Shown here: one piece after another, positions 1,046 through 41,822 of the stretch
Numbering within the stretch: position 1 is the stretch's first letter
How the letters are laid out: every line of letters begins with the position of its first letter
Assembly (NCBI GenBank): GCA_964016885.1
Contig: OZ024746.1
Coordinates: 74,524,001 to 74,588,000 of the forward strand
From: Eledone cirrhosa
Lineage: Eukaryota
Direction of reading: 5' to 3'
Length of the DNA: 64,000 nt
Made by a program: the position numbers and the translations under genes
The notes under the pieces: model-generated
What the model saw: the letters and a program-made list of their open reading frames with translations, nothing else
What the model was told of the DNA's origin: nothing
Databases searched by the model: none

Positions 1046-1420
1046 TAGTATATGCTGGTTGTTTACCGACACCTCAGTATGCAGATTGGAGCACTCGACT
1101 AAATACGCAGGTTAGTTTGGATACTCCGGAGTAATGTAAACTAAGATAATTAAGTCAAATATTTAAAATTTGGCTTCATTTATTAAAGGTGTACTGCTAT
1201 ATATATCATATAATTCCAGTTCGTGAGAGAAATAACAACCCAACCAGGAACTGGGCAAATCGGAGTATTGACGGAGTTAAAACCTCAACAACATGTGTAC
1301 CTGTCTCTACCACACCAATTCGGACTGCCTGAAGAGGTCACAGCCAAGGATGGCTGTCACCGAAATATATATAGCAGTACACGAAGCCAAATTTTAAATA
1401 TTTGACTTAATTATTTTATT
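1046..1420 (+). mobile_element. Non-autonomous PLE-derived mini-element between (TA)n tracts: hammerhead plus an inverted copy of its 3' segment
   Basis: Flanked by (TA)n. 1146-1206 is the reverse complement of 1365-1414 apart from an 11-nt indel containing AATAAA. Hammerhead at 1324-1378. Confidence 0.7.
1324..1378 (+). ncRNA. Type I hammerhead ribozyme (minimal, PLE-type)
   Basis: ACUGC-CUGAAGA-GGUCACAGCC aaggau GGCUGUCACC-GAAA-UAUAUAUA^GCAGU. Stem I is 5 bp, stem II 9/10 bp, loop III palindromic; predicted cleavage after 1373. Confidence 0.88.
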
Positions 1421-1501
1421 TTATATATATATATATATATATATATATATATATATATATATATATATATATATATATATATATATATATATATATATAT
1501 A

Positions 1502-3637
1502 TATTAATTCAAAATATTAATAAATGTAGACATTCAGGTAATCAAAATATATTTTATTATATATATTTCGGAGGTACTGTGCTGTTTTTTCAGTACGTCC
1601 TCATCAGATAAAATACATAAATTGATGTATGACATACGTCAACTGTGCTGATGGTTTAATTCCAGTCTTGGCAGTGATTAATTACAACAAAACTCAATAT
1701 TTATATACCATAAGTACTAACATGACAAACTAAATATAATGGAGAGGGTGAGTAGGAGAAAGTGTAGAAAAAATAAATACATAAATAAAATAAATAACTA
1801 CATAAAAACCTAAGTACATAAATGTTAAATACTTAAATATTTAAAAATGTAAATATCCGTATTAGAGAAAAAACACAAATGAGAGAGAGAGAGCTAAATA
1901 GAAGAGAAAGGGAAAAGATAAGGAGATGAAGATAAAAACAAAGAGAGGGAGATAGAGATGGTAGAATATATATATACCACCACCACCAAAACCACCACAG
2001 CACACATCGTTATATGTCTACCATCCTACACCCGCAACCTTACTACCCCATGTTCCCTCTGCCCACCTTAACCTACAACCCCACGCAAAATTCGATCCTG
2101 TAAATGTACTGTCGCACACACCACCACCGCCACCACTAGATACATCCACATACTTCAACAATCATTAACATCATTAACATCATCAACACATATCATCCCT
2201 CACTCCCAGAACGACTGTGTTACATCTGCCCTCTCCATCTGCTTTACCCTGTAACCCACCGTAACATCTGATCATGTAATCATATTGTTGAACATATCAC
2301 CCCATCACCACCACCATGACCACAAAACACATCGCTATACGTCCACACTTTTTCCCCCCGCGTTCCCTATGTCACCTTTTAACCTGTAACCCATCGAATT
2401 ATTCGATCCTGTATATTTTTGTCGCTCAGAACTCCACCACCACCACGACCACAAGACACAACTCCATACCTCAACATTCATTAACTTCATTAACATCGCC
2501 AACACATACCTTCCCTCTCGAACCAACGCAAGTGTGTGTGTCTGTGTGTAAGTATTTTTATATATGTGTGTGTGTGTATATATATACATATATATATATA
2601 TATATATATATATATATATATATATATATATATATATATATATATATATGTGTGTGTGTATGTATATCTGTGTGTACGTGTATGTGTGTATATCTATGTG
2701 TGTATCTGTGTATGTATGTGTATGTCTATATGTACAACACCATCTCCATTGGCTCTCACCCTCCCTCCATCTTTGTACTACGCCACCCCCACCGATACTC
2801 CCCCTCTCTACGCGCGCATGCACATATATGTGTGTGTATATATGCATATAGTTATATGTACGTGTGGATGTATGTGGGCGCGTGTATGTGTGTGTATATA
2901 AGTGTGAATGTATATAAGCCAGTACATATGCGCATGTATATGTCTACAACGTAATTGTCAGACTAAGAGTGTCTAGATATGTATCTCCCCATGGACCAAC
3001 ACATCCACCACACTACCACAAAAGCCACTACCATAAACAACAACACCACAACCACATCCACTCAATAACCAGCCACCCTATACGCCAACCTGTCTACCGA
3101 CAATCCGCCACCCCCACACCACAGCCCATCCCAGTCAGCGACCGTCACCACCATCTTATCATCACATCCACCCCCACATACACTACAAGCGAAAGTCAAT
3201 CCGCCACCCCCACACCACAGCCCATCGCAGCCAGCGACCGTCACCAACATCTTATCATCACATCCACCCCGACATACACTACAGGCCAATACATCCCTAT
3301 GATTTTTTTCCACCAATCAAAACAACTCATATTGTACAACTTATGAACTTCTGACTTTATCACATAGCATGTATTTCATTTTCTTATACCATTTTAAAGG
3401 GTCCGTCGAGCTGCCGATTATTGAGTCGGGTAAGATCGATACAGATCGAACCATGAGCTGATCAGAGGTGAAACACGCGTCACCTACCAATAAATGTAAT
3501 GAAGGAGTAACCAATCGTCCTTGTTATCCTCTCAATATATTACACTCTGTATAGCTCTACACCTCAACACAGAAGTGAATCTAAACATCGAGTGCTCACC
3601 CGGGTGAACCTGCAGTAACTCCAAGTTACACTCCCTA
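1502..3637. mobile_element. Composite low-complexity insert between (TA)n tracts with PLE pseudo-LTR remnants at both ends
   Basis: Minus-strand hammerhead at the left end. A GAAAC-ACGC-GUC...AATAAA remnant at ~3470-3495. Internal diverged direct repeats (~2000-2200 vs ~2322-2520; 3101-3188 vs 3197-3283). Confidence 0.4.
1550..1615 (-). ncRNA. Type I hammerhead ribozyme
   Basis: Minus strand: UAUUUUAU-CUGAUGA-GGAcGUACUG...CAGUACcUCC-GAAA-UAUAUAUA^AUAAAAUA; 8-bp stem I. Confidence 0.85.
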
Positions 3638-3795
3638 TATATATATATATATATATATATATATATATATATATATATATTAATAAGAGGAATTCCAACT
3701 TTGTCTGATTTACTCGTTTTATTTACAATCCTTTAAGATATATAATGGTATTATAATGAAATAGTATGATAGAATATTAAATTCTAAGTGTTAAT

Positions 3796-3834
3796 TGAAC
3801 AAGTACTTTCATGCTTTCGCAATCTTCAGGTTCA
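3796..3834 (-). ncRNA. Type I hammerhead ribozyme (left-arm copy)
   Basis: Reverse complement of 3917-3955, identical sequence. Confidence 0.75.
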
Positions 3835-3916
3835 TATTATCTGGTGACAGTCAAGTTTGCAATTTTCAACAATTTTCACAGTTGAAAATTGCAAACTTGA
3901 CTGTCACCACATATTA

Positions 3917-40244: not shown

Positions 40245-40362
40245 ATGCGCGTGGCTGAATGGTAAGAGAATTGAACTCTCAATCGTCAGGTTGTGAGTTC
40301 GATTCCTGGACCGGGCGATGCGTTATGTCCTTGGGCAAAACACTTTATTTCACGTTGCTCCT
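40245..40362 (+). mobile_element. CORE-type tRNA-SINE 5' part
   Basis: GCGCGTGGCTGAATGGTAAG, GAGTTCGATTCC, TGTCCTTGGGCAAAACACTTT. Confidence 0.7.
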
Positions 40363-41607
40363 TCTACCTGGAGTTGCGACAGATAGATAGTATTAGCAAT
40401 TGGAAAGACCAATGGAAACCTTGTTTCCTCGATCCGATTCGACGAAAGTCAATCGACTGTCATAGTGAACGGATTTAAATATTCGTATAACAAATCGTTG
40501 TCTCCTAAGGTTACGTGTTGCAGAGGTGGGTGTGTGTATATATATATACATATATATATATATATATATATATATATATATATATATATATATGTGTGTA
40601 TATATATATGTGTGTGTGTGTGTGTATATATATATGTGTGTATGTATATGTGTGTATGTATGTGTGTGTATATGTGTATATACATATGTATGTGTGTGTA
40701 TGTATATATATATATATATATATATATATATATGAAATACCAATGACCGTTGGCAAATCACTGATGAGGGACTCATTTTATAACATGTTATCCATGTGCA
40801 ACCATGCAGTATTCTTCTCCCCATATTTTTCATATATATATATATATAGGTAGTGTGTATGAATCTGTATATATATATATATATATATGTATATGTATGT
40901 ATATATGTATATATGTATATGTGTGTGCGTGCGTGTATATATACATATGTATATATATATATATATATATATATATGTATGTATGTGTATTAGCTATATG
41001 TATGTAAAGGCAAGATGAGAAATGTTCGTATTCACTTACATGGGGTGATGTATTTATCTACCCGTTTCTGTGCAGCAGTATACGGTTCTGGGTTATAGCT
41101 TATATGTTGATATAATAATGTATATACGCGAGAATATAAATAAGTGCTATAGATATTAATTAAATTATTGGAACCTATACATATATATCAACACAGAAAA
41201 CGATAACGTTAAGTTATTATAACATGAATACACACATATTCACAGACACACGCATACATATGTGTGTGTGTCTGAGTATATGTTTGGATATACGTATATA
41301 TGTATGTATGTGTGTATGTCTATGTATATATATATATATATATATATATATATGCATGTGTGTATATGTATAGGTATATGCTTATATATATATATATATG
41401 TGTGTGTGTATATATATATATATATATATATATATATGTATATATATATATATATGTATATATTAAAGTGTTAAACAATATTCAATGATTATGTCAAAGA
41501 ATGAGTTTTACAGTAGATTGGAAGCACTCTACGTAAACATAATTGTCCGGGGTTATTAATATTAAAATATAAATATTAATAAAATAGATGTTCTTTTGAT
41601 CAATTAC

Positions 41608-41660
41608 ATTTTATTATACATATTTCGGATGTACAACAGTACGTCCTCGTCAGACAAAAT
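41608..41660 (-). ncRNA. Type I hammerhead (CUGACGA variant)
   Basis: AUUUUGU-CUGACGA-GGACGUAC uguu GUACAUCC-GAAA-UAUGUAUA^AUAAAAU. Confidence 0.85.
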
Positions 41661-41769
41661 ATAATGATACATGACATACCCTGAGATGTTAAATGGTTAA
41701 GATTTAATCATGACTACCTTGGTTAAATCTTAACGATTTAACATCTCAGGGTATGTCATGTATCATTAT

Positions 41770-41822
41770 ATTTTGTCTGATGAGGACGTACTGTTGTACA
41801 TCCGAAATATGTATAATAAAAT
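41770..41822 (+). ncRNA. Type I hammerhead (CUGAUGA)
   Basis: AUUUUGU-CUGAUGA-GGACGUAC uguu GUACAUCC-GAAA-UAUGUAUA^AUAAAAU; related to 1550-1615. Confidence 0.87.

Follow-up and report, generated by a model that had tools for sequence, protein, structure and literature searches.

Hammerhead motifs at the ends of Penelope-like elements in Eledone cirrhosa and a possible twin-priming origin of their palindromic inserts

Minimal type-I hammerhead ribozymes (min-HHRs) have been described in the pseudo-LTRs (pLTRs) of metazoan Penelope-like elements (PLEs), with about 2,000-9,000 min-HHRs per genome (Cervera and de la Pena 2014, PMC4209133). Pairs on opposite strands, 100-700 bp apart, and a 2-bp helix I in D. 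virilis were already noted there. The origin of inverted and tandem PLE ends and hammerhead cutting in vivo are called open in the portions of PMC8557442 and PMC3846280 considered here. The Poseidon element PAc of Anolis has been studied in vitro (Frangieh et al. 2024, PMC11167929). Its protein, a predicted dimer, cuts and extends both strands of AT-rich DNA and starts internally at two sites bracketing the tail, downstream of the hammerhead. According to the consulted sections of that article, the start sites do not differ between strands, cleavage is dispensable in vitro, and no RNA-seq ends lie at the site. Non-LTR retrozymes reach up to 120,000 copies in axolotl (PMC7229834). Literature searches listed no account of hammerheads in cephalopod PLEs or of twin priming in PLEs, and Pyatkov et al. 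(2004) could hold a similar model. Ribozymes are not mentioned in the consulted part of a paper on O. vulgaris repeats (PMC13282606).

Hammerhead motifs in the window and in the genome

The stretch analyzed, called the window below, comprises 64,000 nt of Eledone cirrhosa (GCA_964016885.1, contig OZ024746.1, 74,524,001-74,588,000, forward strand). A strict type-I scan (CUGANGA, helix II of >=3 bp, GAAA, helix III, UH, helix I of >=4 bp) returned exactly 10 motifs (Table 1). The comparison with dinucleotide-shuffled sequence, proposed with the original prediction of these motifs, came out in its favor: 200 whole-window shuffles gave a mean of 0.03 motifs, 200 block-wise shuffles a mean of 0.025, and the maximum was 1. 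That prediction had listed 11 intact cores. Ten of them have the type-I core and three helices, with the open end at helix I, and the cleavage positions given for three (1373, 5363 and 41815) agree with the strict scan. The remaining one, 5667 on the plus strand (family F), possesses the core boxes and helix II, yet its helix I is no longer than 2 bp in 20 of 20 family copies, and it therefore fails as an intact hammerhead. The supposed single-base core mutant at 25688 is indeed one, a G8U change that places it outside the type-I core definition. A twelfth motif, with C3 at 58551 on the minus strand, had been overlooked; its U4A core, common to the whole family, departs from the strict core. 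Literature searches listed no paper describing a natural U4A core. The consulted part of PMC3088659 names U4C and U10.1-U11.1 and not U4A, and Lunse et al. (2017) or the supplements of PMC8557442 and PMC4209133 could describe U4A or helix-I-less variants.

Eight window motifs form four inverted pairs, one of which (27393 minus and 30433 plus) flanks a broken GIY-YIG fragment. Across at least 15 families, the sequence of helix I varies and its pairing is kept. Minimum free energy folding recovered helices I and II in the majority of motifs, those of families D, E, F and H being the exceptions, so that folding energy alone supports only some of them.

Table 1 Features of the window. Where a C3/H17 pair is given, cleavage is predicted after H17
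Feature	Position	Strand	C3/H17	Flanks	Parent locus	Remarks
Family B staggered head-to-head insert, Hydra-type PLE	1054-1421	both		(TA)n both sides	L215 (ORF)	
Family B left arm	1054-1208	-				carries tail; ends within helix III
Family B right arm	1209-1421	+				no tail; begins 168 nt upstream of cleavage site
Hammerhead B, type-I	1324-1378	+	1329/1373			cut AUA; palindromic helix III AUAUAUAU
Family A2 PLE 3' end, relative of A	1505-1965 (5' boundary approximate)	-		short TA run only, at 5' end		
Hammerhead A2, type-I	1547-1618	-	1607/1558			
A2 TATA motif	1699-1705	-				TATAAAT, 30 nt before Inr-like TCACT
Family C palindromic insert, Neptune-type PLE	3681-4117	both		right side (TC)n then (TA)n	L333 (full-length)	arms 187/190 identical, both beginning 69-75 nt before cleavage site; tail on right arm only
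Hammerhead C, type-I	3796-3834	-	3829/3801			cut CUU; U10.1-U11.1 mismatch; helix III AGUACU
Hammerhead C, type-I	3917-3955	+	3922/3950			
Family B2 single short insert	5251-5414	+	5318/5363	(TA)n both sides		12-bp helix II
Family F 3' end, Neptune-like PLE	5617-5789	+		upstream side adjoins LINE 3' end	L358 (contiguous ORF)	hammerhead-like boxes from 5669
Family D mini-palindrome	25631-25822	both		(TA)n both sides		tail on right arm; both arms begin 45 nt before cleavage site, with extra G
Hammerhead D, type-I	25634-25686	-	25679/25641			cut GUA; 4-bp helix III; U10.1-U11.1
Hammerhead D, G8U	25688-25740	+				private mutation at 25700; G in other family copies
Family E, Hydra-type PLE, 5'-truncated, inverted ends	27343-30573			(TA)n both sides	L218	left arm without tail, right arm with tail
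Hammerhead E, type-I	27385-27449	-	27441/27393			
Broken thumb/linker (CxCx5C)/GIY-YIG fragment	28435-29144	+				87-93% identical to L218 Hydra-type ORF
Hammerhead E, type-I	30377-30441	+	30385/30433			
Family A palindromic insert, Hydra-type PLE	41466-41853	both		(TA)n both sides	L211 (ORFs)	tail on left arm; arms 131/134 identical; 5' ends 95-103 nt before cleavage site
Hammerhead A, type-I	41603-41665	-	41653/41615			
Hammerhead A, type-I	41765-41827	+	41777/41815			
Family H staggered head-to-head insert	58485-58800 (right boundary approximate)	both				inverted partner from 58637 has tail
Family H hammerhead	within 58485-58800	-	58551/58511			CAGAAGA (U4A) core

Rfam, the scan originally suggested for detection, misses every motif tried. 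The whole window gave 0 matches at gathering thresholds, three motifs run singly gave no hammerhead model at E<=10 (3/3), and no hammerhead is among the E-value matches listed for the window (150 of 245). Matches to mir-3199 and MIR9408 lie below threshold and are the palindromes themselves; palindromic inserts mimic miRNA precursors in Rfam scans.

The motif density is about 67 per Mb, which extrapolates to roughly 200,000 in the genome, an estimate above the largest printed figure found, that of the axolotl retrozymes (PMC7229834). One motif class alone has 81,599 counted genomic matches. Pattern search for the 37-nt motif of family C gave 5,173 exact matches, the U4A-core family has about 27,000 copies, and 37,842 endonuclease candidates are present. 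Short inserts in (TA)n that lack an ORF make up most copies, frequently in head-to-head arrangement, and a (TA)n boundary lies <=600 nt upstream in 46 of 63 sampled motifs. The several families of minimal type-I hammerheads of the PLE pLTR kind, the very large population invisible to Rfam and the prevalence of copies without an ORF had thus been rightly foreseen. The statement that all inserts are bounded by (TA)n holds on both sides for those of families B, B2, D, E and A and not for those at 3681-4117, 1505-1965 and 5617-5789. Assembled contigs of three runs of unknown kind, compared with 41440-41870, contain the family; they show no ends or strands and are not counted as evidence.

Parent elements of the inserts

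The motifs are almost certainly minimal type-I hammerheads in pLTRs of Hydra- and Neptune-type PLEs, as judged from sequence. Longer copies of five families (A, B, C, E and F) continue into PLE ORFs with reverse transcriptase (RT) and GIY-YIG domains, and the ORF with RT and C-terminal GIY-YIG endonuclease (EN) lies upstream of the hammerhead-bearing pLTR. The family C ORF matches Pfam RVT_1 (E=2.9e-06) and GIY-YIG (E=3.3e-06), and that of family B matches GIY-YIG (E=0.0036). RT and EN motifs were identified by alignment in families E, which has no Pfam match, and A, and were read in L358 for family F. The inverted pLTR pairs and one-sided tails expected of PLEs are present; in family C, a pLTR runs into ORF1, and a 4.2-kb tandem array was also found. 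The clade assignments rest on motifs, not on a tree: CNCRNKSNC linker, CALC-IEE, CKH and DKT for Hydra (alignment and ORFs), where RWK reads LWK, and DKG, a CX2-5CxxC linker, CCHH in EN and ORF1 for Neptune (ORFs of L333).

Neither 60 loci nor three longer stretches yielded a contiguous ORF for family D. Two of these three stretches contain a Hydra-type ORF in inverted orientation, and the link of family D to a PLE ORF is circumstantial. No parent ORF was found for the U4A family H. The short inserts are most readily interpreted as short products left by the integration of autonomous PLEs: their junctions differ from copy to copy, and arm lengths in family C range continuously from about 100 nt to 4.4 kb.

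Palindromic inserts and their 5' ends

Class proportions are not unbiased, since A, B and D were sampled by similarity to the copies in the window and 40 C loci were taken because their 5' ends lie close to the cut. Of 80 palindromes, 67 have a tail on exactly one arm, one has it on both arms and 12 have none. At the lone locus with two tails, one arm continues into ORF1. In family C loci picked blind to the tail, the one/both/none counts were 18/1/4 compared with 11.3/4.3/7.3 expected (P=0.004). Arms of the same insert rarely disagree at family-polymorphic sites, with discordances of 8/218 in B, 26/297 in C and 3/189 in D against 47%, 45% and 24% in shuffled pairs; family A is uninformative in this respect (3/6 discordant at one site). 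The one-arm tails, the shared subfamily variants and the staggered or non-overlapping arms fit two primings better than fold-back.

Fold-back was proposed in PMC3846280, and an antisense RNA version was put forward for rotifer PLEs. One cDNA, or antisense RNA, would fold at its 3' end and copy itself, the endonuclease would cut the second arm short of the tail, and deletions arising afterwards at the unstable center would leave unequal arms. Such self-priming would account for the subfamily and private variants that arms have in common (3, 22 and 17 shared-private sites in B, C and D), for the equal 5' ends in 39 of 75 tail-asymmetric pairs and for several recurrent centers with 5-7-nt loops, which a cDNA end could form. 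However, each arm has sequence absent from the other in 23 of the 75 pairs, and in six pairs the arms do not overlap at all, leaving inversions confined to the tip of the tail. Moreover, the loops of 0-2 nt at 14 of 66 centers are too tight for snap-back, and tails on both arms are nearly absent. Two primings have their own counterpoint, as later asymmetric deletions at the centers could stagger arms and gene conversion could equalize them. Fold-back is nevertheless considered unlikely, and snap-back at the centers of D and A was rejected as a general route on account of the staggered arms and tight centers.

The positions of the 5' ends bear on where the copying stopped; start sites, caps and cleavage are deduced here from genomic sequence. 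In family C, 15 of 30 ends lie within -64 to -78 of the cleavage site. TATA boxes precede the 5'-end clusters of A, C and D by 31, 31 and 30 nt, and the arm starts of family D lie 30 nt behind a TATAAATA that longer copies contain. Since ends cluster 30-31 nt behind a TATA box in three families, many short inserts likely end at the capped RNA start. Among unselected D-like copies, 8 of 12 end at -45, and six of these eight have a G that long copies lack. The family D extra G could be copied from helix I, its 36/36 figure is biased by the query, and the signal is weak in families A (2/5) and B (3/11). For B, B2, E, E2, G, G2, H, I, J, K and F, no TATA was observed 30 nt ahead of an end cluster, and the TATA located at -77 in E and G is not predictive of where their ends fall. 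End clusters often lie at self-complementary words, which would favor joining with or without a start site.

A minority of inserts stop at the predicted cleavage site, which gives a hint of cutting in vivo. Such ends occur at 14 of 49 distinct junctions in family C compared with 5.6 expected. In family D, the 26 of 71 compared with 15.5 expected are confounded by internal inverted repeats, and the excess is absent in (TA)n-flanked rows (3/16). L333 is a full-length 8.4-kb head-to-head palindrome of family C centered at the predicted cut site. That full-length copies begin at the cut site, as L333 suggested, was not upheld as a general rule: of 15 family C matches preceded by ORF1, 11 retain the upstream hammerhead intact, and a single insertion begins at the cut.

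In L1 elements, twin priming places two primers on one RNA and yields an inverted 5' part, and the strong-stop DNA of LTR elements is a short initial cDNA that terminates at the capped 5' end. Given what can be read in the sequence (motifs, PLE parents, (TA)n targets, one-arm tails, same-subfamily arms, staggered or non-overlapping arms and clustered 5' ends), twin priming is somewhat favored, as a whole mechanism, for the short head-to-head inserts. In this model, a (TA)n target nicked on both strands by the PLE enzyme would let the same RNA be copied from two start sites. The pLTR promoter would yield a capped RNA starting 45-170 nt before the hammerhead cut site. Reverse transcription may then start within the RNA, once for each DNA strand, at two sites that both lie downstream of the hammerhead and that include or exclude the tail. 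Near the RNA 5' end, both cDNAs would run just 100-350 nt to the cap, in a strong-stop-like manner, or less often stop at the hammerhead-cut end or pause. Their 3' ends would then join via short self-complementary words to form a palindrome; where only one cDNA survives, it would become attached to the target and leave a single insert. To gain a whole upstream pLTR, a copy would have to switch template to the 3' pLTR, a jump that would rebuild an intact hammerhead. The complete joint reading is offered tentatively: a PLE dimer would prime both (TA)n strands on one RNA at two start sites, most events would be integrated strong-stop cDNAs reaching the capped start, a minority would end at the hammerhead cut, and pLTRs would arise by the jump onto the 3' repeat.

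Alternatively, twin priming could occur without any role of cap or ribozyme. Short length and clustered ends would then come from RT pausing at RNA hairpins and favored microhomology joints, copying would start at the 3' pLTR of the RNA, the TATA spacing and extra G would be coincidental, and the hammerhead would never cut the template. The clusters at palindromic words (CATATG, ACAGT/ACTGT, GTTAAAT..ATTTAAC), the spread 5' ends without TATA link in several families and the intact hammerhead kept by most long copies are consistent with this. Pausing appears improbable, nonetheless, as the same end positions recur in single non-palindromic inserts joined directly to (TA)n (L035, L037, L072, L075, L239), the TATA-to-end spacing is kept in diverged D subfamilies as well as across the three families, and family C has its excess of ends at the cut site. 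The earlier view that the short inserts are non-autonomous elements or retrozymes of their own, multiplied as units via small or circular RNAs with the help of PLE proteins, would suit the ORF-less copies, the junctions recurring in 7-8 loci (7/30 D matches), as a short master copy would give, and the lack of a contiguous ORF for D or H, but is very improbable given the five families contiguous with PLE ORFs, the continuous arm lengths of family C, the centers differing between most copies, the absence from the window of any head-to-tail short-monomer array (one three-copy array with ~400-nt spacing, L151, in a 1 Mb sample) and the long hairpin in which a transcript through a palindrome would presumably bury its one sense hammerhead.

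If true, twin priming would explain the long-unexplained inverted PLE ends, and the minority of inserts ending at the cut would be genomic proof of PLE hammerhead cutting in vivo. With tens of thousands of young short inserts, both PLE questions can be tested by counting junctions, and even 100 hand-read junctions separate fold-back from twin priming and show the cut-site excess. The genome would then store the Penelope replication cycle in some 200,000 junctions. If transcribed, it would, speculatively, supply tens of thousands of near-perfect 100-300-bp hairpins as possible substrates for RNA editing or small RNAs.

Comparison with described systems

The window motifs are new members of the known PLE hammerhead kind, at unusual scale. 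They have in common with the hammerheads of Cervera and de la Pena (PMC4209133) the CUGANGA/GAAA core, a short helix I, a short palindromic helix III suited to dimers, and many consensus families made up chiefly of single truncated copies. In contrast to the numbers reported there, about 200,000 are estimated and 81,599 counted for one class in the E. cirrhosa genome; the helices III of D and H have 4 bp, and the H core is fixed as U4A, whereas U3-A8 is reported in that article.

Hydra-clade PLEs (Craig et al. 2021, PMC8557442) have the same C-terminal GIY-YIG without internal CCHH, the CxCx5C linker, DKT, CxxC and CxH around conserved E and N, canonical hammerheads, (TA)n targets, an inverted 5' copy and a one-end tail. 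In the consulted portions, few families from other aquatic invertebrates are described, whereas several with tens of thousands of endonuclease candidates occur here; RWK is replaced by LWK, and the tails are 50-110 nt compared with 30-40 nt. Family C shares with the Neptune clade of the same paper the ORF1 overlapping the RT-EN ORF, DKG, the CxxxxCxxC linker, cysteines inside the GIY-YIG motif and (TA)n targets. A full-length head-to-head dimer centered on the cut site, such as L333, was not found described in those portions. In contrast to the PAc results (PMC11167929), the genomic data suggest that each arm has one start site and that a minority of ends lie at the cut.

Non-LTR retrozymes (PMC7229834; bioRxiv 10.64898/2026.07.22.740005) likewise have type-I hammerheads, are AT-rich and are PLE-derived or PLE-carried. 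They consist of head-to-tail 150-450 nt repeats with mostly canonical hammerheads and are expressed as circles. The present inserts, by contrast, are single or head-to-head, carry minimal hammerheads and are contiguous with PLE ORFs; head-to-tail 150-450 nt repeats each with a hammerhead were not found in the window, where the pairs are inverted. As for the better-known processes invoked above, the two cDNAs would differ from those of L1 twin priming in that they usually overlap, giving palindromes and not simple inversions, and unlike the strong-stop DNA of LTR elements, the short cDNA would itself be integrated.

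Motifs in the window and across the genome

A strict type-I scan of the whole window (C6:74524001-74588000) recovered 10 hammerhead motifs, all at places named in the original prediction; 400 dinucleotide shuffles gave 0.03 on average and never more than 1. The eleventh motif described as intact, 5667+ (family F), keeps the two core boxes and helix II, yet fails the scan on helix I, which has at most 2 bp here and in 20 of 20 family F copies. The predicted single-base core mutant at 25688+ proved to be G8U, private to this copy. Eight of the predicted motifs form four inverted pairs. 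Rfam matched nothing in the window at gathering thresholds, and no hammerhead model matched three motifs searched singly.

The same scan was applied to 100 evenly spaced 10-kb stretches (1 Mb) of the 2,996-Mb assembly, spaced by hand and not strictly proportional to contig size. It gave 67 motifs (one is likely an artefact of a microsatellite) in at least 15 sequence families (bootstrap range 45-93 per Mb), while ten shuffles of the sample gave 0-2. The genome total, extrapolated from this 1 Mb, is about 200,000 motifs (135,000-280,000). Whole-genome pattern counts agree with this estimate: the class with a TA(T/C)(A/G)TA helix III has 81,599 matches vs 163 for the reversed control (one loose pattern), and the sample held 30 of this class where 27 were expected. 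The large ribozyme-bearing population that had been predicted is borne out. The 37-nt motif of family C alone has 5,173 exact matches, and the density in the window (10 per 64 kb) is about twice the genome average. Among the 63 sampled motifs with enough flank, (TA)n lies within 260 nt downstream in 58 and within 600 nt upstream in 46, and an inverted partner is present for 27. PLE-coding DNA makes up 12.4 kb of the sample. The SINE flanks and the amount of microsatellite are reminiscent of octopus genomes.

Outside the predicted list, a further motif in the window (58551-) combines three helices with a CAGAAGA (U4A) core. It belongs to family H, in which U4A is present in 30 of the 32 copies retaining the helix I 5' strand. 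Nine complete copies per 1 Mb of sampled DNA correspond to about 27,000 genome-wide. No parent ORF was found for this family, and no precedent for a fixed U4A family was found in the main texts searched. A second, unrelated CAGAUGA (U4A) core with a 7-bp helix I occurs once (L172). Ultra-minimal, F-like cores with helix III cut to ACGU and little helix I were seen at six loci (L153, L169, L207, L209, L216 and L221); this class is excluded from the 67 per Mb.

Features of the window besides the type-I motifs
Feature	Position	Strand	Remarks
Family H hammerhead-like insert	58485-58800		motif 58551-; U4A core; tail, (TA)n and inverted layout as in other families
APE-type non-LTR LINE	42605-45616	-	1003-aa open frame; RVT_1, Exo_endo_phos_2, DUF6451; 3' end recurs at 5433-5600, adjoining family F
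Broken frames	13535-14430	+	resemble a Helitron Rep/helicase piece; no match in a Pfam search
Palindrome without hammerhead	4208-4479		centred on (AT)n tract
Palindrome without hammerhead	11941-12042		
Palindrome without hammerhead	48542-48657		
Palindrome without hammerhead	28305-28571		inside family E insert
Repeat	513-810		starts at (TA)n tract; recurs beside PLE ends elsewhere (e.g., L009); no hammerhead core seen

Parent elements

Several families run on into the ORFs of Penelope-like elements (PLEs). Each arm of a 7.3-kb inverted insert (L211) has family A on an RT ORF, and family B continues into a thumb-EN fragment (L215). In the window, the family E pair 27393-/30433+ encloses a broken linker/GIY-YIG fragment, which has 37,842 first-look genome candidates and longer relatives with RT plus EN (for example 628 aa, L218). 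The A, B and E proteins have a CxCx5C linker, no internal CCHH, CxxC and CxH around E and N, and DKT. They share the marks of the Hydra clade (PMC8557442, section 11), except that RWK reads LWK, and by these motifs rather than by a tree they are probably Hydra-type PLEs. The element of family C encodes ORF1 and a 775-aa RT-EN with RVT_1 and GIY-YIG matches, and would on the same kind of evidence be Neptune-type. Two full-length copies of it lie head to head in an 8.4-kb palindrome (L333, G000:C1:21871500-21881200). They are identical at 4354/4374 positions (99.5%) with ORF1 and RT-EN frames open, are joined at the predicted hammerhead cut site, and carry a tail at one end only. In L358, family F continues into a Neptune-like ORF. 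The link of family D to a Hydra-type ORF, found in inverted orientation in two of three longer stretches, is circumstantial.

Since the families run on into PLE ORFs, the ORF-less inserts appear to be short products of autonomous PLEs. The original reading as non-autonomous elements does not hold for A, B, C, E and F, which belong to RT/EN-coding PLEs, and the inserts are probably not retrozymes. PMC4209133 supposed the same PLE origin for schistosome motifs that occur singly or on opposite strands.

Formation of the palindromes and their 5' ends

Within each family, copies end at one of two fixed positions, which differ by the presence of a tail of 50-110 nt. Among 80 palindromes, the tail is on one arm in 67, on none in 12 and on both in one, whose one arm extends into ORF1; calls were made by motif matching, which misses mutated tails. 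The samples of A, B, D and part of C are not unbiased, and family C chosen blind to the tail gave 18/4/1 for one/none/both (P=0.004). At family-polymorphic sites, the two arms of an insert are discordant at 8/218 (B), 26/297 (C) and 3/189 (D), compared with 47%, 45% and 24% in shuffled arm pairs; family A is uninformative. After 15 (TA)n artefact rows and four symmetric pairs were set aside, 75 tail-asymmetric pairs remained. Their 5' ends are equal in 39, and the tailed arm is longer in 13 and shorter in 23, so that in these 23 each arm has sequence missing from the other. Six pairs have no overlap, with only the tail tip inverted relative to the tail-less copy. Two inserts in the window (1054-1421 and that of family H) are staggered. 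Unpaired loops at the centre measure 0-2 nt in 14 of 66 palindromes.

Taken together, the one-sided tails, arm agreement, staggered arms and tight centres are consistent with two priming events, each on its own strand and from its own start site, which would use a single RNA or RNAs from a common source. Extension of both strands and the use of two start sites have been shown in vitro (PMC11167929). Alternatively, later deletion at the centres could give unequal arms, and gene conversion between arms could give their likeness. A single cDNA folding back, as modelled in PMC3846280, would hardly yield the staggered or non-overlapping arms and the 0-2-nt loops.

At three centres (L074, L076 and L162) the junction sequence is repeated in short stutters, which suggests repeated priming and slippage during joining. 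Other arrangements seen were three hammerheads spaced by about 400 nt in mixed inverted and tandem order (L151, G000:C3:10000001-10010000) and an array in which family C copies run head to tail over 4.2 kb (L409-L411).

The 5' ends, counted in nt before the predicted cut site, cluster in some families. Fifteen family C ends fall within -64 to -78 (first 30 pattern matches, 24 loci), most family A ends at -93 to -103, and 8 of 24 family H ends at -46/-47. The end is at -45 in 8 of 12 D-like copies not picked by the D query. TATA boxes at -104 (C), -134 (A) and -75 (D) precede the ends at -73, -103 and -45 by 31, 31 and 30 nt. A2 shares the TATA-TCACT spacing of the A/C/D type, with a putative start at -118, and diverged D subfamilies retain theirs; no TATA at the 30-31-nt distance was found in eleven other families. 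Six of the eight D-like copies ending at -45 carry a G missing from long copies, as do 4/7 cleanly readable ends in C, 2/5 in A and 3/11 in B. Reverse transcriptases can copy a G from the RNA cap, and on a simple reading the extra G would be such a copy, although that of family D can also derive from helix I. We infer that many of the inserts are cDNAs begun at sites a short way downstream of the hammerhead and extended as far as the RNA 5' end. TATA and Inr motifs in PLE pseudo-LTRs (pLTRs), with transcription starts there, are known (PMC3846280, PMC2377424 and PMC8557442).

Possible traces of cleavage and comparison with known elements

A family C pattern selecting 5' ends at -5 to +10 had 462 matches, of which the first 100 were read by hand and 27 with internal indels dropped. 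Starts at -1/+1 number 20/73 vs 8.4 expected, and distinct junctions 14/49 vs 5.6 (P about 0.001). The L333 centre and the 5' end of another locus (L366) lie at the cut site, and both continue into ORF1. Among 15 of the 139 ORF1-start matches, the upstream hammerhead is intact in 11, two have lost the upstream pLTR, and two (one insertion) start at the cut. For family D, 19 internal indels and 10 helix-I fold-backs were dropped from the first 100 of 211 matches; starts at -2 to +1 are 26/71 vs 15.5 expected, a figure confounded by internal inverted repeats, and its (TA)n-flanked rows have no cut-site spike (3/16).

Cleavage in vivo would therefore account for no more than a minority of copies, unless a switch of template to the 3' pLTR has erased its trace. 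At L363 (G000:C1:437043041-437043881), family C RT-coding sequence abuts the cleavage product at its +1 base, the arrangement expected if copying had switched templates from a cut RNA end. In A, A2, B, B2, C and E helix III is a short palindrome, and cleavage in these families would therefore call for dimers (PMC4209133). Families D and H may cut as monomers. The motifs of a head-to-head pair lie on opposite strands, and the pair thus offers no cis dimer partner. The full mechanism, i.e., two-strand priming on (TA)n, strong-stop cDNAs to the capped start, minority cut-site ends and a template jump onto the 3' pLTR, is tentative, and we lean somewhat against its holding as a whole.

The link between hammerheads and PLEs, the inverted ends, the one-sided tails and (TA)n targeting are already known. 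Unusual here are the number of motifs, the fixed U4A family and the statistics of the junctions. The latter are relevant to two questions regarded as open in the field: how PLEs make their inverted and tandem ends, and whether their hammerheads cut in vivo.
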